Shown here piece by piece: positions 6,182 through 27,478 of a stretch of DNA of 33,990 nt. The position numbers and the translations under genes are program-made. Under the pieces are notes generated by a model, which was not told the DNA's origin, ran no database searches, and worked only from the letters and a program-made list of their open reading frames with translations. This stretch comes from an uncultured Atopobiaceae bacterium. GTDB taxonomy: Bacteria > Actinomycetota > Coriobacteriia > Coriobacteriales > Atopobiaceae. Each line of letters begins with the position of its first letter. Within the stretch, counting starts at the first letter, position 1. The DNA is taken from positions 1-33,990 of the forward strand of contig CAMYZR010000001.1 of the NCBI GenBank assembly GCA_947303905.1. The letters run 5' to 3'.

Positions 6182-6332
6182 GCCTCGATCTTCCGCGCAC
6201 CTCAAACGAGTCGCCGCATCCCCTCAAACCACCGACAAAGCGCATCGGGCTGCTGGTGGAGCCTCGGCTAACTTATCGCGTCTTGTCATCTATGATGGGG
6301 ACGTGCCTTCGCACGCACCACAATCACGTACG

Positions 6333-12129: not shown

Positions 12130-12145
12130 TCTCGCTGGGGTTTTG

Positions 12146-12718
12146 ATGGACCTGCACGCTGCGATCGAACGTTACGCTCCTTTCAACGAGCAGGAGGCGC
12201 GCGACCGCCGTCTCCTGCTGGCCCTTCTCGAGAGCGGCCAGGAGCTCTACACGCGCGAGAACGAGGTCTGCCACCTGACGGCCTCTGCGTGGGTCGTCTC
12301 ACCGGACCGTCAGCGCGTGCTCATGTGCTACCACAACATCTACGACTCGTGGTCGTGGCTGGGCGGACATGCCGACGGGGAGCGTGACCTTGCTGCCGTC
12401 GCCCTGCGCGAGGTGCGCGAGGAGACCAGCCTCACGCATGTGCGGCTGGTCTCGCCCGACATCTACTCGCTGGAGGTGCTCACGGTGGACGGTCACGAGA
12501 AGCGCGGGGCCTACGTGAGCTCGCACCTGCACCTCAACGTGACCTACCTCGTGGAGGCGGACCCGTCAGAGCCGCTGCGCACCAAGGCCGACGAGAATAG
12601 CGGCCTTGCGTGGTTTGGCCTCGACGAGGCCGTCCGGCGCTCGAGCGAGCCATGGTTCAGGGAGCGGGTCTATCCCAAGCTCAACGCCAAGCTTGCGCGG
12701 TTTGAGGCAAACGACTGA
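12146..12718 (+). CDS. NUDIX hydrolase
   Basis: The Nudix box is GGHADGERDLAAVALREVREETSL. The start is taken at M45 (12146) of track ORF 12014-12718. Confidence 0.8.
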   Translation: MDLHAAIERYAPFNEQEARDRRLLLALLESGQELYTRENEVCHLTASAWVVSPDRQRVLMCYHNIYDSWSWLGGHADGERDLAAVALREVREETSLTHVRLVSPDIYSLEVLTVDGHEKRGAYVSSHLHLNVTYLVEADPSEPLRTKADENSGLAWFGLDEAVRRSSEPWFRERVYPKLNAKLARFEAND

Positions 12719-12728
12719 GGAGGTAGTC

Positions 12729-13205
12729 ATGGCGAAGACGCTCCTGAACGACAAACTGTCGGCGTCCTATCCAAAGGGATTTCGCGTCATGGACGAGGAC
12801 GAGAGGCAGAAGGTCTTTCCTGCTGCCAATGCCAACCTCTGGGCCATCTGGGACAAGCGTCATCACGTGATCATCTCCGTGCAGTGGCATGAGGCCAACG
12901 CCCTGCTCTCGAAGCTGGTCGACACCAAGAGCCTGACCAAGCGCGTGCAGGTCCAGGCGCGCAAGGCATACAAGGACATGGGATACGAGGACAGCGAGCT
13001 CTACCGCGCCACGGTCTGCGGGGAGACCGCCTGGGGAGTCGACTTTGCCTATCAGATGCAGGGTGTCGACCAGGTGGCAAAGGCGCTCGTGTTCAAGCAC
13101 GATGCGTGCACGTACACGCTCTACTGCTATGGGCGCAAGAGCAACGCGGCAACAGCCACCCGACTCTTTGACGACTTCCTGGCTTCGCTCAGCTTCTCCA
13201 AGTGA
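12729..13205 (+). CDS. Hypothetical 158-aa protein
   Basis: An ATG at 12729 follows SD GAGGAGG. The ORF has normal codon and amino-acid composition and no recognisable motif. It lies immediately upstream of the peptide-export operon on the same strand. Confidence 0.5.
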   Translation: MAKTLLNDKLSASYPKGFRVMDEDERQKVFPAANANLWAIWDKRHHVIISVQWHEANALLSKLVDTKSLTKRVQVQARKAYKDMGYEDSELYRATVCGETAWGVDFAYQMQGVDQVAKALVFKHDACTYTLYCYGRKSNAATATRLFDDFLASLSFSK

Positions 13206-13337: not shown

Positions 13338-13844
13338 ATGGCTGCCGATGCCTCCTCCATCTTTAACAAACAGGCGGTGGAACGCCTGCGCAGTCCCGAT
13401 GACCTTGACCGATATCTGAGGGCGACCACCCCTGGCGTGTGGATGGTGCTGTTTGCCGTCTTCGTCCTGACCGTGGGCCTCCTGGCCTGGGGCGTGTTCG
13501 GGTCGGTCTCCGCGAGCGTCTCGACGACCGGCGCAAGCATCAACGGCGTGGTGTACTGCATGCTTGACGGTGACCAGGTTGCCCAGGTGCACGAGGGCGA
13601 CCCCGCCTACGTCGACAGCCAGCAGGCGCATGTGGCACGGGTGAGCAAGGTCCCCCTGTCAGTTGCCGAGGCAAAGGGCGTGCTTTCCAGCGACTATCTC
13701 GTGGAGGCGCTCATGCCTGGCGAGTGGGGCTATCTGGTCGTACTCGATGGCGCCTCCTTGGAGGGGGAGGGCATACCCGTGACAGTGAGCATCACTACCG
13801 CACGCATCGCGCCGATCTCTCTCGTCTTGGGAGGCACGCAGTGA
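13338..13844 (+). CDS. Short HlyD-like 'NHLM/NHLP bacteriocin system secretion protein' (membrane-fusion-type adaptor lacking the coiled-coil hairpin)
   Basis: The N-terminus FNKQAVERLRSPDDLDRYLRATTPGVWMVLFAV matches the conserved start of the NHLP-system HlyD family (TIGR03794, as I recall). A single TM helix and a small beta-rich domain follow. The stop overlaps the next gene's start as GTGA. At 168 aa it is much shorter than the ~400 aa I associate with this family. Confidence 0.65.
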   Translation: MAADASSIFNKQAVERLRSPDDLDRYLRATTPGVWMVLFAVFVLTVGLLAWGVFGSVSASVSTTGASINGVVYCMLDGDQVAQVHEGDPAYVDSQQAHVARVSKVPLSVAEAKGVLSSDYLVEALMPGEWGYLVVLDGASLEGEGIPVTVSITTARIAPISLVLGGTQ

Positions 13845-16006
13845 GCAGGTTGCCCAAGGTCCCGCAGGTCATGCAGATGGAAGCCCTGGAGTGCGGAGCG
13901 GCCTGCCTGACCATGATCCTCGCCTACTATGGGCGCTGGGTCCCTCTCGAGCAGGTACGAGCAGACTGTGGCGTCTCGCGTGATGGCAGCAAGGCGAGCA
14001 ACGTCCTTGCGGCGGCGCGCAGCTACGGGCTGGCGGCGAAGGGCATGTCCTTCTCGGTGAGGGCCCTGACCAAGCGCTCGCCCTACCCCTGCATCATCTT
14101 CTGGAACTTTAATCACTTCGTGGTGCTGCGCGGCATAAAGGGCAAGTACGCCTACCTCAACGATCCGGCGCGCGGTCAGGTGCGGGTCCCCCTCGCCGAC
14201 TTCGAGAAGTCCTTCACGGGCATCGCGCTGGTCTTCGAGCCAACCGAGGCCTTCGAGAAGGGCGGCGAGGCTCCCTCGGGCTTCAAGTCCTCGCTGTCGT
14301 ATATCGCCGGTGCGGGGTCTGCCATTGCCTTTGTCATGGCGACCGCGGCCATCTCGTCGCTGTTGGGCATCTTCAACACCTCGCTCAGCCGCGTCTTCCT
14401 CGACCGTGTGCTCTCGGGGGACAATCCCGAGTGGCTCGTGCCTCTCACTGCGGTCATGGCCCTCATTGCCGTGCTCCTGACGATCGTCAACGTGCTCAAC
14501 GCGGTCTATCTGGTGAACATCCAGGGGAAGCTTGCCGTGGTGTCGTCCTCGCGCTTCATGCGCCACCTCCTGCACCTGCCGATGGGCTTCTACGCCCAGC
14601 GTATGGTGGGCGACCTCCAGCAGCGTCAGGCGGCAAACGAGACCATCGCCTTCTCGCTCATCGGACAGCTGGCGCCCGTGCTCATCAACTCGGTCATGCT
14701 ACTGCTCTACCTGGCCATCATGGTGCGCTACAGCCTGGTGCTCACGCTGGTTGGCATCGTCACGGTGGCACTCAACGCCTTGGTGGCACGCTACATCTCG
14801 AGCAAGCGCGTCAACGTCGCCCGTTCCGTCGTGACCGACTCGGGCAAGCTCTATGCCGTGACCGTCGCCGGGGTGGAGATGATCGAGACCATCAAGGCGG
14901 CAGGTGCCGAGAACGGCTACTTCCAGCGTTGGGCCGGCTATCAGGCAAACGTCACCGACGGCAGCGCGCGCATGACCGCCATCAACGAGTACCTTGGCGC
15001 GGTACCCACGGTTCTCTCGCAACTCGGCAACATCTCGGTGCTGCTGGTGGGCATCTGGCTCATCGTCGCGCGGGGATTCACGCCCGGTGCGCTTCTGGCC
15101 TTCCAGGGCTTCTTGGGGTCCTTCATGGCGCCGGTGACCCAGCTGATCGGGCTGGGGCAGACGGTGCAGGAGATGCAGACCCAGGTCGAGCGCGTCGAGG
15201 ACGTCATGCGCTACGAGAGCGACGTGCCCGAGGATTCGTCGGAGGAAGAGGAGATCGAGGCGGCGTCCGCCTTCGGTCGCGAGAAGCTGCGCGGTGCGGT
15301 GGACGTGAAGAAGGTCACCTTCGGCTACTCCCCGCTGGACAAGCCGCTCATCGAGGACTTCGACCTGCACCTCGAGCCGGGTCAGTGGGTTGCGCTCGTG
15401 GGTTCGTCAGGCTGTGGCAAGTCAACCATCGCCAAGCTCGTCTCGGGGCTCTACAAGCCATGGAGCGGGGAGGTCCGCTTCGACGGCACGCCGCTGGACG
15501 AGATTCCGCGCTCGGTGTTCCGCGGGTCGCTCGCCGTGGTCGACCAGGACATCGTCACCTTCGACGACACGGTGAGCCAGAACGTGAAGCTGTGGGACAA
15601 GTCCATCGAGGACTATGAGGTCATCATGGCCTGCCGCGATGCGGACGTCCATCAGGTCGTGGCCGAGCGCGAGGGTGGCTACGAGAGCCGCATCCTGCCC
15701 GGCGGCCGCAACTTCTCTGGCGGCCAGCTGCAACGCCTGGAGATCGCGCGCGTGCTGGCGCAGGATCCCACGGTCATCATCTTGGATGAGGCGACCAGCG
15801 CGCTTGACGCGCAGACCGAGGCGGAGGTCATCAGGCGGATTCGCAACCGCGAGATCACCTGCATCGTGGTGGCGCACCGCCTCTCGACCATTAGGGATTG
15901 CGACGAGATCATCGTGCTCGACCAAGGCAAGGTGTTGGAGCGCGGCACTCATGACGAGCTGCTGGCAAACGACGGTGCCTACGCCGAGCTTGTGAGGAGT
16001 GACTAG
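13841..16006 (+). CDS. Bacteriocin/peptide export ABC transporter with an N-terminal C39 peptidase domain (peptidase/permease/ATPase; NHLP-type ABC1)
   Basis: The C39 catalytic set is intact: QMEALECGAACL (Cys), NFNHFVVLRG (His), LNDPARG (Asp). A six-TM permease region follows. ATPase motifs: Walker A GSSGCGKST, signature FSGGQLQR, Walker B ILDEATSALD. The GTG start at 13841 follows SD GGGAGG. ATG 13871 is an alternative start. Confidence 0.88.
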   Translation: MSRLPKVPQVMQMEALECGAACLTMILAYYGRWVPLEQVRADCGVSRDGSKASNVLAAARSYGLAAKGMSFSVRALTKRSPYPCIIFWNFNHFVVLRGIKGKYAYLNDPARGQVRVPLADFEKSFTGIALVFEPTEAFEKGGEAPSGFKSSLSYIAGAGSAIAFVMATAAISSLLGIFNTSLSRVFLDRVLSGDNPEWLVPLTAVMALIAVLLTIVNVLNAVYLVNIQGKLAVVSSSRFMRHLLHLPMGFYAQRMVGDLQQRQAANETIAFSLIGQLAPVLINSVMLLLYLAIMVRYSLVLTLVGIVTVALNALVARYISSKRVNVARSVVTDSGKLYAVTVAGVEMIETIKAAGAENGYFQRWAGYQANVTDGSARMTAINEYLGAVPTVLSQLGNISVLLVGIWLIVARGFTPGALLAFQGFLGSFMAPVTQLIGLGQTVQEMQTQVERVEDVMRYESDVPEDSSEEEEIEAASAFGREKLRGAVDVKKVTFGYSPLDKPLIEDFDLHLEPGQWVALVGSSGCGKSTIAKLVSGLYKPWSGEVRFDGTPLDEIPRSVFRGSLAVVDQDIVTFDDTVSQNVKLWDKSIEDYEVIMACRDADVHQVVAEREGGYESRILPGGRNFSGGQLQRLEIARVLAQDPTVIILDEATSALDAQTEAEVIRRIRNREITCIVVAHRLSTIRDCDEIIVLDQGKVLERGTHDELLANDGAYAELVRSD

Positions 16007-16049
16007 GGGTCGGTCCTTGCGGACGGACCGCACCGAAGGGAAGGTGCGC

Positions 16050-18236
16050 ATGGCCTTTTTTGGGCTGAAATCGCAGATTGAGATGCGCAAGGAGCTCGAT
16101 GCCGACCTGCTTGAGCGCTCGTATGCGGAGCTTGCCGCAAGTGTGGGCGGCATGCGCAACTCGCCCAGCTTCAGGTCGGATGACCTCGAGCTGGTGGATG
16201 GTGCCGTGCGCACGTGCCTGCGCTACTGCGGGGTGACTCCTGGGACGGCTCCCGACAGCCTGACTGACCTCGAGGCGCGGATGGAATGGCTCTGCCGTCC
16301 CTCGGGCACCATGCACCGCTCGGTGCGACTCGATGGCGATTGGTATCACGATGCCTTTGGCGTCATGTTGGCGCGCCTCGACACGGGCGAGCCCATCGCG
16401 CTGCTTCCACACACGTCGGGTGGCTACTTCTATCACGATCCCACCACGGGGCGGCGCTGCAAGGTCAACGCGAGTGCGGCCTCCCACATCGAGCCCGATG
16501 CCACCTACTTCTATCGCGCGTTTCCGCTGGAGAAGCTGAGCGTCAACAGCCTCTTCCTCTACATCATGCGCGTGCTCGACCGCAGCGACTACCTCTTCGT
16601 CGTGGCGGTCGCGGCCGTCTCCACCCTGGTCGGCCTCCTGCCGGCCTGGGCGAACAACCTTGCCTTTGGTACGGTCGTGCCGAGCGGCCAGGCCAACCTC
16701 ATCGCCCCGATCGGCATGCTTCTGTTGGGCGTTGCCTTGTCGAGCACCCTGTTTGGCATCTCGCGCACCTTGGTGATGGGTCGCGTGTCCACCAAGCTCC
16801 GGACTGCGACCGAGGCGGCCACCTTCTCGCGCATCCTCTTGCTGCCGACCTCCTTCTTCAAGGAGTACGCGTCGGGCAACCTGGCGACCCGAGTCTCGCA
16901 GGTGACGACGCTCGTCGACCTGCTCACCTCGCTTGTGTTGGGCACCGGCCTCACGAGCGTGCTCTCGCTGGTGTACATCGGCCAGATCGCGCTGTATGCG
17001 CCTGTGCTTGCGGTGCCCGCGCTGGTGGTTGCGGTGCTGCAGGCGCTGCTCTCCGTCTTGGTGACGGTCATATCCGCCAAGCGGCAGCAACAGGCAGTGC
17101 AGGCGTCCACACGCCTCTCGGGTCTGGTGACGGCGCTTCTCAATGGCATCCAGAAGATCAAGCTTGCAGGAGCGGAGGACCGTGCCTTTTCCAAGTGGGC
17201 CCACGAGTACGCGGGCTTCGCCCGTGCCACCTACAATCGTCCCACCATCGAGCGCGCGCTGCCTGCCTTCATCTCGCTCATCAGCATGCTGGGCTCTATT
17301 GTCATCTTCTACCTCGCCGGAACCTCAGAGGTGAGCGTGGCCGACTACATGGCCTTTAGCGTGGCCTTTGGCCAAGTGACCGGTTCGCTCATGGCGCTTT
17401 CCGGCACCGTGAGCCAGATTGCCCAGATCGGGCCCACGCTCGATGTCGTCAGGCCCATCCTCGAGACGTTGCCCGAGATTGGGGAGGACAAGCCCAGCGT
17501 GGAGAGGCTCAGCGGGGCCATCTCGGTGTCGGGCGTGTCGTTCCGCTACGACGACAGGTCGCCTTACGTGCTCAGGGACCTCTCCTTCGACATCCGTCCG
17601 GGCGAGTACGTTGCCATCGTCGGCAAGAGCGGGTGTGGCAAGTCGACCATCGTCCGCCTGCTCTTGGGCTTCGAGAAGCCCGAGCGCGGGAGCATCTTCT
17701 ACGGTCGTTACGATGTCAGCAAGGTAGACCTCAGGAGCCTCAGACAGTCGATTGGCTCGGTTATGCAGGATGGCCGGCTCTTCTTGGGCGACATCTCGTC
17801 CAACATCACGATTGCGGCGCCGAGCGCGACGCTCGATGATGCATGGCGGGCGGCGGAGATCGCGGGAATCGCTGATGACATCCGCCAGATGCCGATGGGC
17901 ATGCAGACGATCCTGAGCGAGGGCTCGGGTGGCGTATCGGGCGGGCAGCGTCAGCGCATCATGATCGCGCGTGCCGTGTGTGGCGACCGCCGTATCCTCA
18001 TGCTTGACGAGGCGACGAGTGCCCTGGACAACATCACCCAGAAGCATGTGTCCGACTCCCTCGCGCAGCTCAAGTGCACGCGCGTGGTTGTGGCCCATCG
18101 CCTGTCGACCGTGCGTCATTGCGACCGCATCCTCGTGGTGGATGACGGGCACATCGCCGAAGAGGGCAGCTACGACGAGCTCATCGCCCGTGACGGCCTC
18201 TTTGCCGACCTGGTGAGGCGCCAGCGTCTGGAGTAG
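16050..18236 (+). CDS. Second peptide-export ABC transporter permease/ATPase with a degenerate, non-catalytic N-terminal domain (NHLP-type ABC2)
   Basis: The N-terminal ~170 aa lack the C39 Cys/His context. TM region follows. ATPase motifs: Walker A GKSGCGKST, signature VSGGQRQR, Walker B MLDEATSALD. The start is taken at M18 (16050), after GGGAAGG. Confidence 0.85.
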   Translation: MAFFGLKSQIEMRKELDADLLERSYAELAASVGGMRNSPSFRSDDLELVDGAVRTCLRYCGVTPGTAPDSLTDLEARMEWLCRPSGTMHRSVRLDGDWYHDAFGVMLARLDTGEPIALLPHTSGGYFYHDPTTGRRCKVNASAASHIEPDATYFYRAFPLEKLSVNSLFLYIMRVLDRSDYLFVVAVAAVSTLVGLLPAWANNLAFGTVVPSGQANLIAPIGMLLLGVALSSTLFGISRTLVMGRVSTKLRTATEAATFSRILLLPTSFFKEYASGNLATRVSQVTTLVDLLTSLVLGTGLTSVLSLVYIGQIALYAPVLAVPALVVAVLQALLSVLVTVISAKRQQQAVQASTRLSGLVTALLNGIQKIKLAGAEDRAFSKWAHEYAGFARATYNRPTIERALPAFISLISMLGSIVIFYLAGTSEVSVADYMAFSVAFGQVTGSLMALSGTVSQIAQIGPTLDVVRPILETLPEIGEDKPSVERLSGAISVSGVSFRYDDRSPYVLRDLSFDIRPGEYVAIVGKSGCGKSTIVRLLLGFEKPERGSIFYGRYDVSKVDLRSLRQSIGSVMQDGRLFLGDISSNITIAAPSATLDDAWRAAEIAGIADDIRQMPMGMQTILSEGSGGVSGGQRQRIMIARAVCGDRRILMLDEATSALDNITQKHVSDSLAQLKCTRVVVAHRLSTVRHCDRILVVDDGHIAEEGSYDELIARDGLFADLVRRQRLE

Positions 18237-18275
18237 GCGGTTATTGGGTGGCCATGGTTTACCGTGGCAATTGCG

Positions 18276-18320
18276 AGAAAAACGGGCGGACGCATCCGGT
18301 TGTGGATGCGCCCGCCCGTT
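18276..18320. terminator. Strong hairpin between convergent genes; works as an intrinsic terminator mainly for the minus-strand membrane-protein gene
   Basis: A 17-bp stem with one mismatch, AACGGGCGGACGCATCC (18281-18297) / GGATGCGCCCGCCCGTT (18304-18320). On the minus strand it is followed by TTTTT. The U-tract on the plus strand is weak. Confidence 0.7.
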
Positions 18321-18344
18321 GCGTTGCTCTATGCGAACTGTCGG

Positions 18345-18992
18345 TTAGAGGGCGAGAGCGTTGCGGGAATGGTTCAGGAAGCCGAGGTACAGGAAGTACA
18401 TGACCACGCTGAACATGAGACCGGCGAACGAGAGGATGAGGGCGAAGGTTCCCTGCGGAAGCATGCGGGCGATCTGCTCGAAGATCTGCGCGCCGACGAG
18501 CAGCCACAGGATCTGGTTGCCGCGGTTGACGAGGTCGTTGCGTCCGATGCGGGTCATGAGCTTGCTAATGCCACCAACTGTGAAGATCGTGACGAACAGG
18601 GATGCAAGCGTGCTGAGAAGCTCGAAGAAGCTGCCTAGAAGGTTGGACTCGCCGTTCACGCTCTGGATGACGCTGGCGATGATTGCCAGGGCAAGTGCTG
18701 CGATGCTGGAGATGAAGGCGGCGCGCAACTGGGTGGGCTCGTCCTTGCTTGCCTCGTTGAGGCCGATGATCGAGAGAATGAGGCTGATCATCGGCAGGAT
18801 AATCCCGGGCAGCATGCTCAGAAAGGCTCCCAGTGCAAGGCTGCTGGTGACGGCGGCCTCGACTTGGCCCTCGCTCTTCATGCCGAAAAAGCCTACGGCG
18901 ACGCCGATTGCCAAGAGAACAACTCCGATGAGCTGGAGAAGCTCTGCCAGGTAGATCTTGCCGATGCCCTTGTACGCGTTCGGGAATTTCAT
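18345..18992 (-). CDS. Hypothetical polytopic membrane protein (215 aa, about 6 TM segments)
   Basis: Hydrophobic segments include LLQLIGVVLLAIGVAVGFF, LGAFLSMLPGIILPMISLILSII, FISSIAALALAIIASVI, LASLFVTIFTVGGI, ILWLLVGAQIF and FALILSFAGLMFSVVMYFLYLGF. The SD GGAGGAA precedes the ATG. I recognise no family motif (no CPBP EExxxR/H motifs). By eye its GC is lower than its neighbours'. Confidence 0.6.
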   Translation of the reverse strand: MKFPNAYKGIGKIYLAELLQLIGVVLLAIGVAVGFFGMKSEGQVEAAVTSSLALGAFLSMLPGIILPMISLILSIIGLNEASKDEPTQLRAAFISSIAALALAIIASVIQSVNGESNLLGSFFELLSTLASLFVTIFTVGGISKLMTRIGRNDLVNRGNQILWLLVGAQIFEQIARMLPQGTFALILSFAGLMFSVVMYFLYLGFLNHSRNALAL

Positions 18993-19316
18993 AGGTGTTC
19001 CTCCTCTTTGTTGGCGCCATCAAGCTGTGATGGCTCCGTGCCCGTTTAGACGTCGAACTTAATACACAACTGCGGGCGTGTTGTCTCAAGATAGTCAGTT
19101 TTTTCTGAAAGCAGGATTGTTAATGGCTGATGGCAATTACTTTTGATTGGCCTTGGCGTGCCATTTGGACATTTCTCCTGCCTTTGTGGTACCAGATGCC
19201 CGACCGGCGGGAAAACTCTCGTCGAGTCGCATAAAATAGAGAAAAGTTTGAGACAGACTGCGAGCGCCGGCAGTACTAACGGGCAAAGAAAGAAACTCCG
19301 GCGTAAGGGGATGGAC

Positions 19317-19526
19317 ATGAACGACAAGATGATCGAGCGCGTACTGTCGAGAGACTATTCGGTTGGCAAGCAGGCCTTCAAGGAGAATCTCCTGCAGCGT
19401 TGCCTGGCCGAGCTGGATCAGGGTGATCAGGGGATGGAGCTTGCGGACGACGAGCTCGACATGCTGGCTGCGGCAGGCGTCCCCTTCCTGGATGAGAATC
19501 CGTTCAATCCGCTCAAGAGGCCGTAG
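19317..19526 (+). CDS. 69-aa candidate exported-peptide precursor with a double-glycine-type leader; predicted core (G)VPFLDENPFNPLKRP
   Basis: Sequence: MNDKMIERVLSRDYSVGKQAFKENLLQRCLAELDQGDQGMELADDELDMLAAAG-VPFLDENPFNPLKRP. The segment ELADDELDMLAAAG aligns to the GG-leader consensus (L-12, E-8, L-7, hydrophobic -4, small/small at -2/-1). SD AAGGGGA lies 6 nt before ATG 19317. A strong terminator lies 48 nt downstream. The longer track ORF (from 19143) has no SD support. Confidence 0.55.
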   Translation: MNDKMIERVLSRDYSVGKQAFKENLLQRCLAELDQGDQGMELADDELDMLAAAGVPFLDENPFNPLKRP

Positions 19527-19573
19527 GCCCATAGCCCAAGCCGTCATACAGACGCGATACCGCGTATGCGAAA

Positions 19574-19605
19574 GCGCCTCAGACCATGTGGTCTGAGGCG
19601 CTTTT
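19574..19605. terminator. Intrinsic terminator between the convergent peptide gene and the phosphatase gene
   Basis: A perfect 13-bp palindromic stem, GCGCCTCAGACCA (19574-19586) / TGGTCTGAGGCGC (19589-19601), is followed by TTTT (19602-19605). AAA precedes the stem, giving a weak U-tract for the opposite strand. Confidence 0.8.
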
Positions 19606-19630
19606 CTGTTGCCCGATGTGGGTGAGCCCG

Positions 19631-22255
19631 CTACCAGCTCTTGCTGATGGCGACCACATTCGCGTTGCCGTCGCGCACGTAGCTCATGTCGTCGGTCAGC
19701 TGCTTTGCCATGAAGATGCCCAGGCCGCCGATCATGGTGTCGGCGATGGAGGTGGGCTTGTCCGGGTCGTCCTGGGCAAGCGGGTTGAACGGTGTGCCCC
19801 AGTCGGTGATCTGGACGGTGATGGTGTAGGGGTCGGGACGATAGATGTACTCGACGCGGCAGGTTCCTGGGCTGTCAGAGCCCTCGTAGGCGTAGTTGCA
19901 GACGTTGACGAACAGCTCCTCGATGGCCACGTCAAGCTGGTTCTGCGCGACGATGGGGCAGCGGCGCCTCCCGAGCTCCTCATGGACGAAGGAAAGCACG
20001 TCGTCGAGTTGGTCCAGCGTGGCGTCGACCGTGATGGAACCCCTGACCTCGGGAGCGATCCCGTACTCGAGCGAGAGGATCGTGATGTCGTCGGACTGCT
20101 CAGTCCCGTTTGCCCATGCGTGGACGTCGTCCTTCAACGCATCGGTTATCGCATGCGGGTGCATCTCGGTGTGCCTCATGAGAAACTCCTCAAGCCGCTG
20201 GCCTCCGTATTGCTCTTCCCTGGTGTTGAACGCCTCCGTGACGCCATCGGTGTACAGCAGCAGCTGGTCGCCACGGCTTAGTTTCAGGGTGCTGCTACGG
20301 AACTTGGCCGTGTCGAAGGTGCCCAAGAAGAGTCCTCCGCGCGACTGGAGCCAGTCCCATCTGCCGTTGTGGCGCAGCATCGGCGGGTTGTGCCCGGCGT
20401 TGACGTAGGTGAGCTCGCCCGTCTCGTAGTCGAGCGTGGCAGCCCACACGGTCACGAACATGCCGGCCTCGTTGCCCTGGCAGAGGTGCCAGTTTGCCGT
20501 CTGGATGGCTTCGGCGAGGTCCATGTCGCTGCTCATGTAGTTTGCCAGCTCGGTCTTTGCCGCCATCATGAACAGCGACGCCGGAATGCCCTTGCCGGAT
20601 ACGTCGGCGATGAGGAAGCCGAGCGTGTGGTCGTCCAGAAGGAAGAAGTCGTAGAAGTCTCCGCCCACCTCGCGCGCCGGTGACATGCTGGCGTAGATGT
20701 CAAAGGCGTCGACCTCGGGGAAGGGCGGGAAGGTCTGAGGCAGGGCACTCTCCTGGATGGAGCGCGCCGTGCTGAGGTCGCGGTCGATGCGCCCAGCCTC
20801 CTCGGCAATGGCGTTCTTGAGCGCGGAGACGGTGGCGTTGATGCCGGAGGACAGGCTCACGAACTCCACCGAGTCCTTCACGCTCACGCGTTGGTCGAGG
20901 TCGCCCTGGGTGATGAGCTTGAGCGTCGCGTTGGTCTCGTCGATGCCGCGTACGACCACGTTCTTGAGCAGGAGCATCGCCTGGACGTACACGGTCGTGA
21001 ACAGCGCGATGAACACGAGGGAGAACGCGATCATCATGCGGCTTCTCCAGGCAAAGACCTCGGTTGCGGGAAGGGCGGCCATCACCTGGTAGTTGCCCGA
21101 CTTGCTCATGCGCATGTAGCCAACTTGGGTCGCGCGCAGGTATTCCAGCTTCGAGCCACCCATATACCAGCGAGTGACCATCGGGCGGTCGTAGATGCTC
21201 TCATCGAAGCCGTCCTGCAGGCCACTGCCCACGACCTCCTCGAAGGATTGTCCCAAGAAGGACTCCTCGCTTGACGAGACGATGGTCCCGTTCTCAGCGA
21301 TGACGGATACGCCGTGCTTGCCGAGGGGCAGTCCCGTGGCGATGCCGCCTATCGTGCTCTCGTGCAGCTCCTCGATCCGGGCGTTGGTGAACTGCGAGCG
21401 GCGTGCGATGCCCTCGAGCATCTGGTCGCTGCGCTCGAGCTGTCCGGCGAGGTAGTCGATCTGGCCCTTGATCTGGTTGTTCGCGCTCACGAGGCACGAG
21501 CTGCTGATGAAGGTGTAGCCCAGCGCCGCCGTGATCAGGTATGCCATGGAGACAACCACAGCCAGCCATCCCTGGAAGGTGGCGCGCAGGGTGTGCTCGC
21601 CCTTGAGCGCGTCGATGTTGCGGTCGAGGGCGCCTGCGGTGGTGGACAGGGCCATCATCAGGATGAAGTCGGCCACGATCTGCGAGACGACCTCGCGATT
21701 GCCGGTGAAGTCGCTGAGCAGGTCACCGGGGACGGAGAGGTTGAGCAGGTCGTTGATGGCGTTGACTGAAACCGAGAACACGAACGTGAACAGCACCGAC
21801 CCGACCAGGCAGGCACTGGCCAAAACGAGCAGGCCTTGCAGGTCGCCTCGCTCGTTGCGCCTGCGGTCGGCTATCGCGAAGAGCACGCCCATCACGGCGC
21901 CGATGAGCGCGAACAGGAACACCGAGTTGGTTGGTGCCGCGAAGTATGCCTCGTAGGCATCGAGGGGAAGCAACGTGGCATGGAGCATCTCGGCAAGTCC
22001 TGCGACGAATCCGATGATGGTGCCAGCCAAGGTGCCAAACAGGAGCGATCCTGCGGTGATGGGGGCCAAAACAGCGATGACGTGGGTGCTTCCGATGACG
22101 AGATAGTTGGTTTGGGTGGCGACCATGGAACAGGACAGGATGATGAGAAACACGACGGAGGTGATGCGCACGCCGCGTGTCGCATCGCCCATGAGCCCCT
22201 TCCATCCCAGAAGGCTGCCTATGCCCCGTTTGTTGGCTTGCGTTGTCGCCGCCAT
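19631..22255 (-). CDS. Membrane sensor fusing a PP2C (SpoIIE/RsbU-type) phosphatase to a C-terminal RsbW/SpoIIAB-like HATPase (anti-sigma kinase) domain. Architecture: multi-TM, periplasmic-type loop domain, TM, HAMP, PP2C, HATPase_c
   Basis: The N-terminus has about 6-7 TM helices. A ~150-aa non-hydrophobic segment lies between TM helices (Cache-like by position). A HAMP-like segment follows (VVRGIDETNATLKLITQGDLDQRV...). PP2C motifs: GGDFYDF, IADVSGKGIPASLFM, YVNAGHNPP, LLLYTDGVTEA, SDDITILSLEY. HATPase_c_2-like tail: AIEELFVNVCNYAY...ITDWGTPFNPL...IGGLGIFMAKQL. The start is taken at M25 (22255), after SD GGGGAG. Confidence 0.8.
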   Translation of the reverse strand: MAATTQANKRGIGSLLGWKGLMGDATRGVRITSVVFLIILSCSMVATQTNYLVIGSTHVIAVLAPITAGSLLFGTLAGTIIGFVAGLAEMLHATLLPLDAYEAYFAAPTNSVFLFALIGAVMGVLFAIADRRRNERGDLQGLLVLASACLVGSVLFTFVFSVSVNAINDLLNLSVPGDLLSDFTGNREVVSQIVADFILMMALSTTAGALDRNIDALKGEHTLRATFQGWLAVVVSMAYLITAALGYTFISSSCLVSANNQIKGQIDYLAGQLERSDQMLEGIARRSQFTNARIEELHESTIGGIATGLPLGKHGVSVIAENGTIVSSSEESFLGQSFEEVVGSGLQDGFDESIYDRPMVTRWYMGGSKLEYLRATQVGYMRMSKSGNYQVMAALPATEVFAWRSRMMIAFSLVFIALFTTVYVQAMLLLKNVVVRGIDETNATLKLITQGDLDQRVSVKDSVEFVSLSSGINATVSALKNAIAEEAGRIDRDLSTARSIQESALPQTFPPFPEVDAFDIYASMSPAREVGGDFYDFFLLDDHTLGFLIADVSGKGIPASLFMMAAKTELANYMSSDMDLAEAIQTANWHLCQGNEAGMFVTVWAATLDYETGELTYVNAGHNPPMLRHNGRWDWLQSRGGLFLGTFDTAKFRSSTLKLSRGDQLLLYTDGVTEAFNTREEQYGGQRLEEFLMRHTEMHPHAITDALKDDVHAWANGTEQSDDITILSLEYGIAPEVRGSITVDATLDQLDDVLSFVHEELGRRRCPIVAQNQLDVAIEELFVNVCNYAYEGSDSPGTCRVEYIYRPDPYTITVQITDWGTPFNPLAQDDPDKPTSIADTMIGGLGIFMAKQLTDDMSYVRDGNANVVAISKSW

Positions 22256-22269
22256 GCTGTCTCCCCGCA

Positions 22270-22295
22270 TATTTGCCTGTGCATAATGGCAAATA
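22270..22295 (-). promoter_or_regulatory. AT-rich inverted repeat TATTTGCC-N10-GGCAAATA just upstream of the phosphatase SD
   Basis: Read directly from the sequence: perfect 8-bp arms at 22270-22277 and 22288-22295. It lies in the 123-nt gap between the STAS gene and the phosphatase gene. It could be an RNA hairpin or a protein operator. Confidence 0.35.
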
Positions 22296-22378
22296 CCTCT
22301 CACGTGAGGAGAGCTCCAACAGAGCATGCCAGACGTGAGAGGATACTTGTCTCGACTTGAGATGAACTGACCTTGTCG

Positions 22379-22681
22379 CTAGCTGACGATGGTCATGACC
22401 TCGGAGAGTCCCGTCATCTCAAACACCTCGGTGACTTCGGCAGTCGGGTGGAGCAGACGGATCGAGCCACCGCGCTGCATAGCGAGCTTCTGGGTGCTGA
22501 CCAGCACGCGCAGGCCAGCGGAGGAGATGTACTCGAGCTCGGAGAGATCGATGTCAAAGTTGACCGCGCCCGTGCCAAGCTGACGTACGGCATCCTCGAG
22601 CTCGGGACTCGTGGCGACGGTGAGCTTGCCCTTGACCGCAATGGCGCCCGTGTTGCCGTCAAGATTGGTGGTGATGTCCAT
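22379..22681 (-). CDS. STAS-domain anti-sigma-factor antagonist (RsbV/SpoIIAA-like)
   Basis: The protein is 100 aa. It carries the conserved phosphorylatable-serine context DLSELEYISSAGLRVL, and VTEVFEMTGLSEV at the C-terminus. SD AAGGAG lies 6 nt before the ATG. Confidence 0.85.
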   Translation of the reverse strand: MDITTNLDGNTGAIAVKGKLTVATSPELEDAVRQLGTGAVNFDIDLSELEYISSAGLRVLVSTQKLAMQRGGSIRLLHPTAEVTEVFEMTGLSEVMTIVS

Positions 22682-22701
22682 GCTTTGCTCCTTGCTGTCT
22701 C

Positions 22702-23232
22702 CTAGGAAGCGACTGCGCGCATCTTGGCCATGGCGCGCGAGAGCTTGGTTGATATTGTCGATGCGTTCATGCCCATAATCTGGGCGATTTCGGTGTTACG
22801 TAGCTGTTCGTAGTACTTGAGGTATACCAGCTGACGCTCCTCGTCGTCGAGTGTCGCGAGCAGCTGCGAAGCGAGCTCGGCGTCGCCAATCTGGTCGGTC
22901 TCGGCCTCCTCCGCGTAGGCGCCTTCGGCGATGTCCTCGATCGGGACGTTTTCGGGCGTGCGCGAGAAGTAGTCGCTGATGCAGTTGTTGGCAATCGAGA
23001 TGACCCAGGTGGAGAACTTGGCACGTGTGGGATCGAAGCGGGAGAAGTAGCGGGCGGCACGCAGGTACGCCTCGGAGGTGATGTCCTCGGCGGCCGTATG
23101 GTTGCCCACGCGGCGGAAGATGTAGTTGTAGACCATGGAAAAGCTTTCGCGGTAATAGCGCTCGAAGTCGCGATGCATGTCCCGCTTGTTGTCGCCACCT
23201 TCGACCAGTCTGAATCTGCTCGCTCGTGCCAC
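22702..23232 (-). CDS. ECF-type (sigma-70 family, regions 2 and 4 only) RNA polymerase sigma factor
   Basis: Region 2: YRESFSMVYNYIFRRVGNHTAAEDITSEAYLRAARYFSRFDPTRAKFSTWVISIANNCISDYFSR. Region 4: ERQLVYLKYYEQLRNTEIAQIMGMNASTISTKLSRAMAKMR. The GTG start at 23232 follows GAGG. ATG 23178 is an alternative start. Confidence 0.85.
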   Translation of the reverse strand: MARASRFRLVEGGDNKRDMHRDFERYYRESFSMVYNYIFRRVGNHTAAEDITSEAYLRAARYFSRFDPTRAKFSTWVISIANNCISDYFSRTPENVPIEDIAEGAYAEEAETDQIGDAELASQLLATLDDEERQLVYLKYYEQLRNTEIAQIMGMNASTISTKLSRAMAKMRAVAS

Positions 23233-26542: not shown

Positions 26543-27478
26543 CTACTGGATACCAGCCTGGTGCGTAGCGAGCCACTCGGCTGCCTTGTGCGCAAAGTAG
26601 CAGGTGCCACCCTCGCTTTTGGCCTGCTCGTAGTACGGGCGGGCAGCCGCGTCATCGCCCTTGAGCACCTCGAGCTCGGCCCGACGGAAGGCGACACTCG
26701 TTTGCTGCTCGGGCAGCTTTGCCAGCCCGGTGAGCCTGTCGAGCAGCTCCTCGGCCGCCTGCAGGTCGCCGTCGGCAACGGCGAGCGCCTCGTCGGTAAA
26801 GAGCAGCGCCATCTCGGCGCCCTCCCTAAGGGGCCCGCGCGACTTGCGCAGGGATGCGGCAAGATCGTCGCGCAGGCTTCTCACCTGCGGCCAGTCCTTC
26901 TCGATCGTGGCGAAGCCGATGCCGACGTTGTCGACCATCGGCCTCATGGCACCGGAGGGCTTGGCGGTGGCCGTGGCCACGTTCAGCAGCTCGCGCGACT
27001 TCTCGACGTCACCCGTGAGCATGGCCGCCTGGGACGCGATGAGCATATGCTGTGCTTTGGCGCGACGATTCTTGATGCGGCCAAGGAGATGGTCTTCCAC
27101 CTTGAGCATCTTGGCGGGGTCGCAGTCGTGGGTCACGATGCCCTGGAAATCGGCGTATGAGCGGATGATGAACAGGTATTCGAGGGCAACGCATGCCACG
27201 ACGATGGGGATGGCGAACAGGAGCCTTGTCCAGTCGGCCTCCCCGAGGACATACGGCCAGCAGGCGACGAGCGTGAGGCCGGCGGCCAAGGCGGCGCCAG
27301 CGCAGCGAATGAGCAGGTCGCGGTTCTTGAACTTGATGGCGCACTCGTACGGCCTGAGATTGGCGAAGGACGAGTGTCGCGTGGTGTCGCCAGTCTGCAT
27401 AGGCGCATGACCTCCAAGGACGTCTCCCATACCTCGCCATATGATACTCGCGTCAAACGAATGTGTCTCGCCATGCAT
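26543..27478 (-). CDS. Hypothetical membrane protein with a helical-repeat (TPR-like) C-terminal region
   Basis: Two TM helices (LLIRCAGAALAAGLTLVACW; LLFAIPIVVACVALEYLFII) precede Ala/Leu/Glu-rich helical repeats. The start is uncertain: 27478, 27430 or 27400. Confidence 0.45.
   Translation of the reverse strand: MHGETHSFDASIIWRGMGDVLGGHAPMQTGDTTRHSSFANLRPYECAIKFKNRDLLIRCAGAALAAGLTLVACWPYVLGEADWTRLLFAIPIVVACVALEYLFIIRSYADFQGIVTHDCDPAKMLKVEDHLLGRIKNRRAKAQHMLIASQAAMLTGDVEKSRELLNVATATAKPSGAMRPMVDNVGIGFATIEKDWPQVRSLRDDLAASLRKSRGPLREGAEMALLFTDEALAVADGDLQAAEELLDRLTGLAKLPEQQTSVAFRRAELEVLKGDDAAARPYYEQAKSEGGTCYFAHKAAEWLATHQAGIQ

Follow-up and report, generated by a model that had tools for sequence, protein, structure and literature searches.

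A leader peptide, an NHLP-type exporter, an ECF sigma factor and a partner switch form one recurring cassette in Coriobacteriia, probably a peptide-signalling circuit

Introduction

The closest described systems each resemble the gene cassette considered here in some of its parts. In the streptococcal ComC/ComAB/ComDE and BlpC/BlpAB/BlpHR systems, as in the cassette, the gene of a small precursor, whose leader is conserved and whose mature part varies, shares a transcript with the gene of its regulator, and there is a dedicated C39-peptidase ABC exporter. The Blp layout offers one more parallel: in relatives of the cassette the same regulator drives GG-leader cargo peptides that are able to share the exporter. 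The cassette, however, is found in the actinobacterial class Coriobacteriia, has a leader of ~55 aa ending in LAAAG rather than in GG, uses a two-subunit NHLP-type exporter with a truncated HlyD-like partner, and has no histidine kinase or response regulator; signal transduction would use a membrane PP2C/RsbW-like sensor, a STAS protein and an ECF sigma factor.

The NHLP/Nif11 leader-peptide export systems, reportedly described by Haft and colleagues in 2010, are said to be represented by TIGR03794, TIGR03796 and TIGR03797. The likeness concerns the exporter, whose first transporter (ABC1) is over the TIGR03796 cut-off and whose second (ABC2) falls short of that of TIGR03797 by no more than 3 bits, the long helical leader with the end E-L-x-D-x-x-L-x-x-[LIV]-A-small-small, and the Nif11-like GG peptides in loci related to the one studied here. 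On the other hand, the cassette precursor falls outside the families TIGR03793 and TIGR03798, modification enzymes are absent, the HlyD component is cut to 168 aa, and the cassette is tied to a sigma factor and a partner switch.

A SpoIIE-family PP2C phosphatase, a HATPase_c_2 kinase/anti-sigma and a STAS protein with a phosphorylatable Ser are common to the cassette and to the partner switches RsbU/RsbV/RsbW-sigmaB, SpoIIE/SpoIIAA/SpoIIAB-sigmaF and Rv1364c of M. tuberculosis, the last being a fused PP2C-kinase-STAS protein and the nearest solved relative of the cytoplasmic part of our sensor. Their sigma factors belong to group 3, whereas the cassette sigma is an ECF (group 4) factor; the cassette phosphatase-kinase spans the membrane several times and has an extracytoplasmic loop, and the partner-switch module is part of a peptide-export operon.

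The ECF sigma BtrS of Bordetella is encoded beside BtrU/BtrV/BtrW and a secretion machine, much as the cassette sigma lies next to PP2C, STAS and kinase proteins and an exporter, and it is controlled by the secreted anti-sigma BtrA, in a manner comparable to FlgM. Unlike the cassette, the Btr system has type III secretion and a large anti-sigma, with no leader peptide or C39 exporter, and its partner switch acts on secretion rather than directly on sigma. In the MibX/MibW system of microbisporicin, an ECF sigma located, as here, within a secreted-peptide gene cluster drives that lantibiotic cluster by feed-forward from ECF-type promoters (PMC4973701). There, the anti-sigma is a classical membrane protein and the peptide a heavily modified lantibiotic, whereas the cassette has the STAS/PP2C/kinase switch and neither a class I anti-sigma nor modification genes.

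Gene content of the window

We analysed a stretch of DNA of 33,990 nucleotides, referred to as the window (Table 1). The original prediction had placed four modules between 13338 and 23232 with no unrelated genes in between. All four are located there, in four separate transcription units, and the span carries only a HlyD stub, two NHLP-type ABC exporters, a 6-TM gene, the leader peptide and a sigma/STAS/PP2C-kinase operon. The histidine kinase and response regulator pair, said to be missing, was not found either when the main ORFs of the window were scanned with Pfam. We could also confirm that the sigma/STAS module converges on the peptide gene and that the two have a terminator region in common, a single hairpin.

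Table 1. Features of the window and the evidence for each
Feature	Position	Strand	Evidence or remark
NUDIX hydrolase gene; possible accessory gene heading the exporter operon	12143..12718	+	Pfam NUDIX, E = 2e-11
158-aa protein directly 5' of the exporter; recurrent accessory gene	12729..13205	+	Homologue in L038
HlyD-like accessory protein, truncated, 168 aa, one N-terminal TM helix	13338..13844	+	TIGR03794 partial match
ABC1, NHLP-type export ABC transporter with N-terminal C39 peptidase	13841..16006	+	TIGR03796, Pfam
ABC2, NHLP-type export ABC transporter permease/ATPase subunit	15999..18236 (alternative start ATG 16050)	+	TIGR03797
G+C-rich hairpin between converging ABC2 and 6-TM genes; likely bidirectional terminator	18282..18319	.	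Read from sequence
6-helix membrane protein (6-TM), invariant ASKDE loop	18345..18992	-	AF2, family clusters
Promoter-like site TGAGACAA-N13-GTGTATTA, 68 nt 5' of 6-TM start	19060..19088	-	PWM
Promoter-like site TGAGACAG-N14-CAGTACTA, 33 to 39 nt 5' of peptide start codons	19249..19278	+	Score 5.2, spacer 17
69-aa precursor: ~55-aa three-helix leader ending LAAAG and 15-16-aa tail (G)VPFLDENPFNPLKRP	19317..19526	+	Family clusters, AF2, hhalign
Hairpin, 12-bp stem, common to converging peptide and sensor genes	19574..19601	.	Followed by TTTTCTGTT on the + strand
Membrane sensor: 7 TM, ~150-aa extracytoplasmic loop, TM8, HAMP, PP2C (SpoIIE), RsbW-like HATPase_c_2	19631..22255	-	Pfam, hydropathy
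STAS anti-sigma-factor antagonist, 100 aa, conserved Ser motif DLSELEYISSAGL	22379..22681	-	TIGR00377, Pfam
ECF-type sigma, 176 aa, regions 2 and 4 only	22702..23232	-	TIGR02937, PDB matches
285-aa 2-TM protein, outside the originally predicted span	26543-27400	-	Promoter-like site upstream
Promoter-like site CGAGACAC-N13-GAGTATCA ahead of the 2-TM gene, outside the originally predicted span	27442..27470	-	Motif conservation

The NUDIX gene is also situated 5' of the exporter genes in two other loci, L022 and L038, and in L022 it has the promoter motif described below upstream. The 158-aa protein matched no Pfam or NCBIfam family; its homologue in L038 (47% identical) opens an exporter operon that has the promoter motif upstream. 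Judged by eye, this protein resembles a 161-aa ORF of the GG-peptide operon of L024, a pair outside the BLAST comparisons. The match of the HlyD stub to TIGR03794 is restricted to residues 16-66 (51 residues) and, with 33.5 bits, does not reach the cut-off. Stub identity is 51-56% across the exporter-bearing loci, L026 excepted (36%, partial alignment).

ABC1 scored 925 bits on TIGR03796 (cut-off 853) and has the Pfam domains Peptidase_C39, ABC_membrane and ABC_tran. With the catalytic motifs ECGAAC and NHFVVL in place, the C39 peptidase looks active; the GTG start at 13841 overlaps the stop codon of the stub and lies 3' of a GGGAGG ribosome-binding site. The ABC2 score on TIGR03797, 706 bits, was just under the cut-off of 709. 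Identity across loci was 72-80% for ABC1 and 62-71% for ABC2, with the ABC2 alignments beginning at residue 23.

The peptide start was placed at 19317 because L006 reads ACG at the earlier ATG. The precursor, present in one copy per locus, belongs to an unannotated family of at least 202 clusters at 50% identity (267 at 90%), in which a ~55-aa three-helix leader is conserved and the tail is short, variable and mostly acidic (median 17 aa, 82% net negative). The tails are Pro-rich and disordered-looking, and neither Cys, Ser nor Thr occurs in the tail VPFLDENPFNPLKRP. In the AF2 model, helices span residues 5-13, 21-35 and 46-55, followed by a disordered tail. The structure search gave no fold match for the leader, and no ASD-like or zinc motif was seen in it. 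The precursor, originally called a GG-leader peptide, matches neither TIGR03793 nor TIGR03798; hhalign placed LAAA onto the AGG of true GG leaders, a register that indicates cleavage between AAA and G and not at Gly-Gly, with a similarity to Nif11-like leaders limited to the cleavage motif (probability 25%).

The sigma factor scored 93 bits on TIGR02937 (cut-off 42.9) and its best PDB matches are all ECF sigmas (e.g., SigW, SigK, SigL), in agreement with the predicted ECF type. The STAS protein scored 71.7 bits on TIGR00377 (cut-off 53.45), with Pfam matches to STAS and STAS_2, and gave a weak MlaB hit (E = 3.6e-4). In the sensor, Pfam detected SpoIIE (E = 1.7e-49) and HATPase_c_2 (E = 4e-23), while hydropathy predicts eight TM helices with ~150 aa between TM7 and TM8, which accords with the sizeable extracytoplasmic domain attributed to it; this loop matches no known ligand-binding family. 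The PP2C motifs GGDFYD, DVSGKG, TDGVTEA and DDITIL, the N and G boxes of the kinase and the STAS Ser are all readable in the translations. When compared with L006, the TM and extracytoplasmic parts of the sensor were 89-91% identical and the HAMP, PP2C and kinase domains 98-99%; the input region is thus diverging much faster than the output domains. The input domain also varies by locus, from the 7TM-plus-loop type to a 5TMR_LYT sensor in L026.

For the 6-TM protein, we found no Pfam or NCBIfam family and no PDB fold match; its AF2 model (pLDDT 85.7) has six helices, and the family comprises 23 clusters. The protein was 58-77% identical in L006 and L007, compared to 79-100% for neighbouring genes. 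Its occurrence was limited to L038 and the clade of the window, and a homologue of 33% identity lies in an unrelated context, so its proposed role as a circuit module did not hold up; likely it is a clade-specific regulon member and sigma target, not a core part.

Recurrence of the cassette

The sample consisted of 14 distinct peptide loci, all on metagenome contigs from a single class. An ECF sigma orthologue lies within 3.5 kb of the peptide in 11 of the 14 loci, an exporter within 10 kb in eight, and a STAS/SpoIIE module is nearby in five or six. Since the loci share ancestry, these counts are inflated. Still, many diverged loci have these modules together (identities of ~45% for the peptide, 44-53% for the sigma orthologues adjoining peptide homologues, and 33-57% for the sensor), therefore the adjacency is far beyond chance.

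Three loci (L024/L025, L034, L035) have the co-linear operon peptide, sigma, stub, ABC1, ABC2, STAS, sensor; most neighbouring genes in it overlap or are at most 25 nt apart. Counting this operon, we observed at least six gene orders, and the cassette is partial or split in L022, L026, L028, L032 and L038. In most cases the peptide gene heads its operon. Most likely, the block in the window is a rearranged copy of a conserved Coriobacteriia cassette. The expected co-occurrence of the block across genomes was thus seen for the peptide, sigma, exporter and STAS-sensor modules, though not for the 6-TM protein.

No STAS or sensor genes were found near the peptide-sigma pair in L001, L022, L031 and L032 (four of the ten better-covered loci), and no exporter near the pair in L001, L020, L031 or the covered part of L008. 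It may be that these genes sit elsewhere in the respective genomes, or that the pair does not need them.

Promoter motif

Of 15 regions upstream of the peptide gene, 12 carry a bipartite ECF-like promoter, GGGAC-N17-CGTATAA, 33-52 nt ahead of the start. In 421 kb we found 14 sites with at most one mismatch, compared to 0.8 expected. The extra sites are all upstream of neighbouring operons in the correct orientation, for example the exporter operons of L022 and L038 and the GG-leader peptides of L024 and L032.

In the window, the top PWM match (14.1) is the site preceding the 6-TM gene, which suggests that this gene is a target. Its -35 and -10 elements are kept in L006 and L007 while the spacer is variable, and the L007 copy has a perfect CGTATAA (score 19.6). 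The same pattern, kept elements and a variable spacer, is seen in L007 for the site ahead of the 2-TM gene, after which a GGAGGT ribosome-binding site and an ATG follow. The site of the peptide gene is a weak match inside a 65-bp block invariant in the clade, and its distance from the start agrees with that in other loci. The motif is absent upstream of 13338 (exporter operon) and 23232 (sigma operon); therefore these two operons are not visibly autoregulated in the window. The suggested motif search upstream of orthologous blocks did reveal a sigma-type promoter, missing at these two positions; the earlier impression of no obvious motif common to 13338, 19317 and 23232 stands for the first and last and is modified by the weak site at 19317.

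Discussion

The likeliest reading, though one to which we give somewhat less than an even chance, is that the cassette works as a peptide autoinduction loop. The ECF sigma would transcribe the precursor gene from a promoter of the GGGAC-N17-CGTATAA type; where the operon is canonical, one such promoter would drive all of it, from the peptide through sigma, stub, ABC1, ABC2 and STAS to the sensor. The C39 domain of the NHLP-type exporter would recognise the ~55-aa leader and cut after LAAA or after LAAAG, and the short acidic tail would be exported. Outside the cell, the tail would meet the membrane PP2C/kinase sensor and act at its variable input region; PP2C would dephosphorylate STAS, STAS would capture the RsbW-like kinase domain, and sigma would be freed. 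The freed sigma would raise the output of the peptide and of local targets, namely the 6-TM and 2-TM proteins in the window and, in relatives, the exporter operon and Nif11-like GG-leader peptides. Gene content, conserved linkage, the promoter motif and the catalytic motifs are shown by the sequences; we infer the cleavage and export of the precursor and, more weakly, the RsbW-type control of the ECF sigma; that the sensor might sense the tail is the least supported step.

The loop is favoured by the conserved linkage, the promoter motif and the active appearance of the parts. The variation of the tail and the sensor input, next to conserved leader, exporter and output domains, points to pheromone-like evolution. 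Against the loop stand the loci with STAS/sensor or exporter missing near the pair, the non-uniform input domain, the lack of the motif at the sigma and exporter operons together with the weak score at the peptide, and the acidic, Pro-rich, disordered tail, which would suit a passive linker equally well. Moreover, binding of RsbW-type proteins to ECF sigmas is not described (PMC7406223).

One functional unit without feedback is a rather unlikely but serious alternative, in which the peptide would belong to the sigma regulon simply as a secreted product, e.g. as effector, decoy or GG-leader-like cargo, and the sensor would read another cue, such as envelope state, a nutrient or a host signal. 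Other exported GG-leader peptides, those of L024 and L032, are under the same promoter, so sigma appears to control secreted peptides, and both the locus-dependent sensor inputs and the loop unlike known ligand-binding families fit this explanation. It accounts less well for the link of the LAAAG peptide with sigma, seen in 11 of 14 loci and not shared by the GG cargo peptides, for the usual position of this peptide at the head of its operon, for ~17-residue net-negative tails unlike known bacteriocins, and for the fast evolution of tail and sensor input next to conserved leader, exporter and output domains. More improbable is a precursor that acts as a secretion-coupled sigma regulator similar to FlgM or Bordetella BtrA: the leader would hold the ECF sigma until C39-ABC cleavage and export freed it, with the STAS/PP2C-kinase switch gating the exporter or adding a second control layer. 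The peptide-sigma link is the most conserved one and persists with no exporter or partner switch nearby (L001, L031), no other anti-sigma candidate was seen in L031, L032 and L001, and the conserved 55-aa helical leader is about the size of small anti-sigmas such as NepR, leaving the tail free to vary. The weak MlaB match of STAS is also in line, MlaB being a precedent for a STAS protein that binds an ABC ATPase. But a C39 transporter sends out what follows the cleavage site, and the leader stays in the cytoplasm, so the conserved part would not be removed; a long conserved leader is equally expected from recognition by an NHLP-type exporter, as for NHLP and Nif11 leaders; the missing ASD-like or zinc motif and fold match speak against an anti-sigma, and the canonical operon already encodes an RsbW-like domain.

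Finally, the four separate transcription units and the motif-free sigma and exporter operons of the window could suggest that functionally unrelated modules are adjacent by coincidence. We give this almost no credence, as it is contradicted by the co-occurrence data: the modules lie together in at least eight independent loci, in varied gene orders that include a tightly packed single operon, and have a promoter motif in common.

The exporter, the leader peptide, the ECF sigma and the phosphatase/kinase switch belong to one cassette with its own promoter motif, which recurs in many gut and rumen Coriobacteriia. This cassette is therefore probably an undescribed peptide-signalling circuit.

Gene Content of the Cassette

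The original prediction had placed four modules at 13338-23232 with nothing unrelated between them, and ORF and family scans recovered exactly these genes. Its further claims on this region were borne out as well: HisKA, HATPase_c and Response_reg were absent from the main ORFs of the window in Pfam scans, with neither histidine kinases nor response regulators found; the peptide and sensor genes converge on a common terminator region with a hairpin; and the sensor has a sizeable predicted extracytoplasmic part, of ~150 residues between TM7 and TM8. The GC content of the window is ~63%, and the source is a rumen organism of Coriobacteriaceae type.

Features of the window and of related metagenome loci (L-numbers; L006 and L007 form a clade with the window)
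Feature	Locus	Coordinates (strand)	Remark
HlyD-like stub	window	13338-13844 (+)	168 aa, one TM helix
ABC1	window	13841-16006 (+)	GTG start at 13841, overlapping stop of preceding gene
ABC2	window	15999-18236 (+)
6-TM protein	window	18345-18992 (-)
Site of 6-TM gene	window		TGAGACAA-N13-GTGTATTA, 68 nt upstream of gene
Preferred peptide-gene site	window	19249-19278	TGAGACAG-N14-CAGTACTA
Replaced peptide-gene site	window	19208-19236	GGGAA-N16-CATAAAA
Leader peptide	window	19317-19526 (+)	69 aa; earlier ATG reads ACG in L006
Terminator hairpin	window	19574-19601	12-bp stem
Sensor	window	19631-22255 (-)	874 aa
STAS protein	window	22379-22681 (-)
ECF sigma	window	22702-23232 (-)
2-TM protein	window	26543-27400 (-)	285 aa
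Site of 2-TM gene	window	27442-27470 (-)	CGAGACAC-N13-GAGTATCA; then GGAGGT ribosome-binding site, ATG at 27400
158-aa protein	window	12729-13205 (+)
LytR_cpsA_psr protein, two ORFs	window	119-433 / 458-955 (+)
MurT/GatD genes	window	2817-4908 (+)	~8 kb from exporter
GmrSD-type type IV restriction endonuclease	window	6138-8390 (+)	GmrSD_N, GmrSD_C, RAMA domains
Alpha-amylase, two overlapping ORFs	window	32170-33114 / 33066-33884 (-)
MurT	L022	8841-10208	directly beside exporter
GG-leader (Nif11-like) peptides	L024	879-1079; 4063-4350	66 aa; 95 aa
GG-leader (Nif11-like) peptide	L032	15008-15259	83 aa
Hairpins and T-runs between peptide and sigma genes	L022; L035; L026	413-470; 4850-4900; 10223-10280
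647-aa protein	L008	7311-9254 (-)	between sigma and sensor homologue
Opp-type oligopeptide importer	L031	2056-7522	SBP_bac_5, two permeases, two ATPases

In the exporter, ABC1 aligned over its full length with TIGR03796 (924.9 bits, cut-off 853.3) and carries Peptidase_C39 (Pfam E = 1.8e-34), ABC_membrane and ABC_tran domains; the C39 Cys motif ECGAAC and His motif NHFVVL can both be read in its translation. ABC2 scored 706.1 bits with TIGR03797, 3 bits under the cut-off of 709.4, and this was its best-scoring family by far. The HlyD-like stub matched only positions 1-51 of the 421-position profile TIGR03794 (33.5 bits, cut-off 156), and tblastn found this shortened form kept in all related loci. 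These family matches place the exporter in the NHLP type, with a truncated HlyD partner.

Two genes at the window margins, for a LytR_cpsA_psr protein and an alpha-amylase, are split by frameshifts, pseudogene formation or assembly errors. A restriction endonuclease gene lies between the left margin and the exporter. The nearness of MurT/GatD genes to the exporter, seen also in L022, is probably residual synteny and not a matter of function.

Sigma Factor and Partner Switch

The operon facing the peptide gene codes for the ECF sigma, the STAS protein and the sensor. The sigma has only the Sigma70_r2 and Sigma70_r4_2 domains of Pfam and scored 93.3 bits with TIGR02937 (cut-off 42.9). Its ten best PDB matches were all ECF sigmas, SigW included, and it is 98% and 90% identical to the sigmas of two 'RUG' rumen MAGs. 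From a genome scan anchored on the sigma, three close relatives were used, while the other 11 loci were left out as unrelated ECFs.

Eight TM helices are predicted in the sensor, followed by HAMP, a SpoIIE-type PP2C domain (168.9 bits in Pfam) and HATPase_c_2 (82.2 bits). The STAS protein matched STAS_2 of Pfam (59.7 bits) and TIGR00377 (71.7 bits, cut-off 53.45). In the translations, the PP2C metal-binding motifs, the N and G boxes of the kinase and the Ser motif of the STAS protein are all intact. Among solved structures, Rv1364c, the fused PP2C-kinase-STAS regulator of mycobacterial SigF, comes closest to the cytoplasmic part of the sensor. The switch is of the RsbU/V/W type by its components (PP2C, HATPase_c_2 and STAS with Ser), but it is paired with an ECF sigma. 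The kinase domain may hold the adjacent sigma in the manner of RsbW. Interaction of RsbW-type proteins with ECFs is not described (PMC7406223), and a 2022 review of non-canonical ECFs names no such switch except EcfG/NepR/PhyR.

The input part of the sensor diverges much faster than the output part. Identity to the window sensor over TM1-7 and the loop, compared to HAMP, PP2C and kinase, was 89-91% vs 98-99% in L006, 43-47% vs 62-72% in L024, and 16-28% vs 41-55% in L035.

The Leader Peptide Family

A word-based search for relatives of the peptide gave only three clusters, while an exhaustive profile search gave 202 representative clusters at E <= 0.001, and a second profile search, with 105 members as the query, gave 267 clusters at 90% identity. 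All family members are 60-90 aa long, and many copies are left uncalled in annotations. The sole name that databases give to these relatives is 'hypothetical protein', from MAGs of Eggerthellaceae and Atopobiaceae. Scans of JGI metagenomes were poor in yield: the first, with an alignment of close peptides, produced 600 pattern matches with none confirmed, and the second, with another peptide alignment, produced three loci only.

The family consensus is M-x-E-x-x-I-x-R-x-L-x-x-D-F-S-x-G-T-E-A-F-R-D-x-L-L-x-R-C-L-x-V-L ... E-L-D-D-x-x-L-D-M-L-A-A-A-G, followed by a tail. The leader ends in LAAAG in 199 of 248 members and in LSAAG in 31 more of the 248; one member has VAGG at this place. The tail has a median length of 17 residues, is net negative in 82% of cases and is rich in Asp (12.5%) and Pro (11%). 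Its first residue is almost always Gly, and an aromatic residue is common three positions on. An AF2 model of the peptide, made with 113 sequences, has helices at 5-13, 21-35 and 46-55 and a disordered tail; a fold search with this model found no match. In the window clade the leader is almost constant and the tail changes (VPFLDENPFNPLKRP, VPFLEEDPFKRP and VPYLDENPFNPQV).

GG-leader peptides cleaved by C39 transporters are defined by Gly-Gly (or GA/GS) at -2/-1, hydrophobic residues at -4, -7 and -12, and Glu at -8. A regex search for GG-leader cargo found none in the window. The classical register L-12, E-8, L-7, L-4 fits the precursor only with a cut after AAA, so that the product would begin with Gly. 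When the precursor was scanned against Pfam and NCBIfam, TIGR03793 and TIGR03798 included, there was no match even at E <= 10, and in this it differs from the peptides covered by the NHLP and Nif11 leader models. A profile comparison with Nif11-like peptides aligned 18 columns only, at the cleavage site, with a probability of 25%; there, ...ELxDxxLxxLAAA of the precursors was aligned on ...ELxDxxLxxIAGG of true GG-leader peptides from related loci. The precursor represents a new leader family.

Conservation of Linkage Across Loci

We compared 14 distinct loci with a peptide family member to the window proteins by tblastn. They all come from a single bacterial class, as metagenome or MAG contigs chosen by their length and not at random, and several are cut at the contig end. 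In 11 of the 14 loci the peptide has an orthologous sigma (44-53% identical) no more than 3.5 kb away, in eight the exporter is found at up to 10 kb, and a STAS/SpoIIE module is near the peptide in five or six. The exporter is the best-conserved part of the cassette (ABC1 72-80% and ABC2 62-71% identity across loci); identities to the window were lower for the peptide (40-56%), the sigma and the sensor (33-57%).

Gene order near the peptide gene in related loci
Locus	Arrangement
L024/L025, L034, L035	co-linear tight operon: peptide, ECF sigma, 167-169-aa stub, C39-ABC, second ABC, STAS, TM-HAMP-SpoIIE-HATPase_c_2 sensor
L022	peptide, sigma, NUDIX, 341-aa protein, stub, ABC1, ABC2
L032	peptide, 69-aa ORF, sigma, 63-aa ORF, stub, ABC1, ABC2, GG-leader peptide, C11 peptidase
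L026	peptide and sigma; 5-10 kb off on other strand: 5TMR_LYT-HAMP-SpoIIE protein, STAS, separate 135-aa HATPase_c_2 protein, stub, C39-ABC
L028	stub directly after peptide
L008	peptide, sigma; sensor homologue 2 kb further
L001	sigma, membrane-anchored EEP-domain protein, peptide
L031	peptide-sigma pair only, within available sequence
L020	peptide only; contig begins 488 nt upstream

The block put forward in the original prediction thus recurred in part: peptide, sigma, exporter and STAS/sensor are found together, while tblastn recovered no homologue of the 6-TM protein from the other cassette loci. No HisKA, HATPase_c or Response_reg protein was found in the canonical operons (L024/L025, L034 and L035). 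Rather than occurring independently, the modules stay close over at least six gene orders and at least three families (family names as given by the sources). Such closeness, kept despite rearrangement and across families, is the mark of a functional unit. A literature search, with most subscription journals outside its reach, found no description of it.

Several further observations concern individual loci. The hairpins between peptide and sigma genes in three of them may terminate transcription partially and thereby keep the ratio of peptide to regulator high. The 647-aa protein of L008 looks HATPase-like by eye in its N-terminal part, and the rest resembles a polytopic dicarboxylate/amino-acid:cation symporter. 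The oligopeptide importer of L031 is complete and lies 2.5 kb upstream of the peptide-sigma pair.

Promoter Motif

Motif discovery upstream of the orthologous blocks, which the original prediction had proposed as a check, found GGGAC-N17-CGTATAA in 12 of 15 peptide upstream regions, 33-52 nt before the peptide start and with a spacer of 17 nt in every case. Sites with at most one mismatch numbered 14 in 421 kb (both strands counted) compared to 0.8 expected from shuffles. Ten of these are peptide promoters, and the rest are all correctly oriented 5' of a neighbouring operon: the NUDIX-exporter operon in L022, a 391-aa membrane protein adjoining the sigma in L031, and, in L032, both the 83-aa GG-leader peptide with Peptidase_C11 and a divergent gene. 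A weighted scan added the exporter operon of L038 (score 20.5) and the operon of the 66-aa Nif11-like GG-leader peptide in L024 (score 19.4). A search allowing two mismatches was dropped as too loose (21 sites observed vs about 14 expected).

SigW-type ECF sigmas recognise promoters of the form TGAAAC-N16-CGTA. The motif resembles these promoters, and the window sigma has SigW as one of its closest solved relatives. We infer that the adjacent ECF sigma recognises GGGAC-N17-CGTATAA and that the canonical operon is autoregulated.

In the window itself, no motif common to the regions upstream of 13338, 19317 and 23232 had been seen at the outset, and this is explained by our scan, because neither the sigma operon (23232) nor the exporter operon has a site of the GGGAC-N17-CGTATAA type upstream in the window. 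A generic scan of the region for sigma-70 and terminator consensus sequences gave no more than chance. The best PWM match in all 34 kb is the site of the 6-TM gene, with a score of 14.1 that is not significant alone because shuffled windows reach 10-19.6. In L006 and L007, the -35 and -10 elements of this site are conserved while the spacer is variable, with a perfect CGTATAA in L007. Likewise, the site before the 2-TM gene has conserved -35 and -10 elements and a variable spacer in L007. As window scores alone are not significant, the case for these sites rests on such conservation in the clade. The site of the peptide gene lies inside a 65-bp block invariant in the clade. Two candidates, both weak matches, were considered here, and one was replaced by the other, which is preferred because it has the TGAGAC -35 of the clade and agrees with the canonical form in its 17-nt spacer and in its distance to the start.

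Candidate Target and Accessory Genes

The 6-TM protein belongs to a small family of 23 clusters. A 50%-identical member lies between a SpoIIE sensor and the exporter operon in L038, and a 33%-identical one occurs in an unrelated context in an Eggerthellaceae MAG. Within the window clade the protein diverges fast (58-77% identity vs 79-100% for neighbouring genes). It has an invariant ASKDE loop. Pfam and NCBIfam scans assigned it to no family even at E <= 10, and a PDB fold search with its confident AF2 model (pLDDT 85.7) gave no match and was uninformative (best E = 0.4, TM-score <= 0.38). We take it for a lineage-specific sigma target and not for a core component. A third target is probably the 2-TM protein, which belongs to no family and was seen in the window clade only.

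For the 158-aa protein upstream of the exporter, Pfam and NCBIfam gave nothing. Its homologue in L038 (47% identical) heads the motif-preceded exporter operon, and the protein is possibly an accessory component that has escaped recognition. To the eye, a 161-aa ORF of the GG-peptide operon in L024 looks similar.

True GG-leader peptides under GGGAC-N17-CGTAyAA are present in L024 and L032. In L024, the 66-aa peptide is followed by two ABC_trans_CmpB genes, the 161-aa ORF and the second, 95-aa peptide; in L032, the peptide has a Cys-rich, zinc-ribbon-like core and is followed by Peptidase_C11. These peptides are probably cargo of the same exporter.

Discussion

Tentatively, an autoinduction loop is the most likely reading of the cassette. 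Sigma-dependent transcription would yield the precursor, and the C39-ABC exporter would cut it at LAAA|G and export the tail. The membrane PP2C/kinase would sense the exported tail, upon which dephosphorylated STAS protein would capture the RsbW-like domain and the sigma would be freed. Linkage, promoter motif and intact catalytic motifs are observed; cleavage and export of the tail are suggested by good analogy, while its sensing is the least supported step. The fast evolution of the sensor input, together with the changing tail, matches what is seen in pheromone-receptor pairs. It is no proof of such a pair because sensor input domains often evolve fast.

In the main rival explanation, the cassette would be a functional unit without feedback, the peptide being just one of its exported products and the sensor answering to a different cue. 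We consider this rather unlikely. According to another explanation, the helical leader would be a secretion-coupled anti-sigma, as FlgM or BtrA. The very tight pairing of peptide and sigma, which persists with no exporter or switch nearby in L001 and L031, speaks for it, but C39 exporters leave the leader inside the cell, and we regard an anti-sigma role as improbable. Coincidental adjacency of modules that stay close through such rearrangement is for practical purposes excluded.

The proposed autoinduction loop would work like the streptococcal Com/Blp systems, and relatives even have GG-leader cargo under the same regulator. However, the two-component pair that defines ComC/ComDE and BlpC/BlpHR is absent from the cassette, which for this reason falls outside that class. 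There is a substantial chance, though less than even, of a family-wide quorum sensing of new design in Coriobacteriia of gut and rumen, in which the secreted tail of an LAAAG-leader peptide would act through a membrane PP2C/RsbW-type sensor and STAS to free an ECF sigma. GGGAC-N17-CGTATAA would then define the regulon, with exported GG-leader peptides among its members.

Coriobacteriia (Eggerthellaceae, Atopobiaceae and Coriobacteriaceae) are common in gut and rumen, and we are not aware of any peptide-based signalling that has been described for this class. The precursor family of at least 202 clusters, the seven-gene cassette, the promoter motif and the candidate targets defined here are blank or 'hypothetical' in databases. 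The proposal can be tested directly, as the tails are synthesisable and the promoter motif is a ready reporter. A circuit of this design, if real, would be a first in two respects: a peptide pheromone whose signal passes through partner switching, and an ECF sigma under RsbW-type control. Should the wiring hold, peptide pheromones of Gram-positive bacteria would not be limited to two-component or RRNPP receptors, and ECF sigmas would come within reach of RsbW/STAS partner switches. Even without feedback, the motif and the cassette mark secreted peptides and a dedicated regulator in an understudied group.
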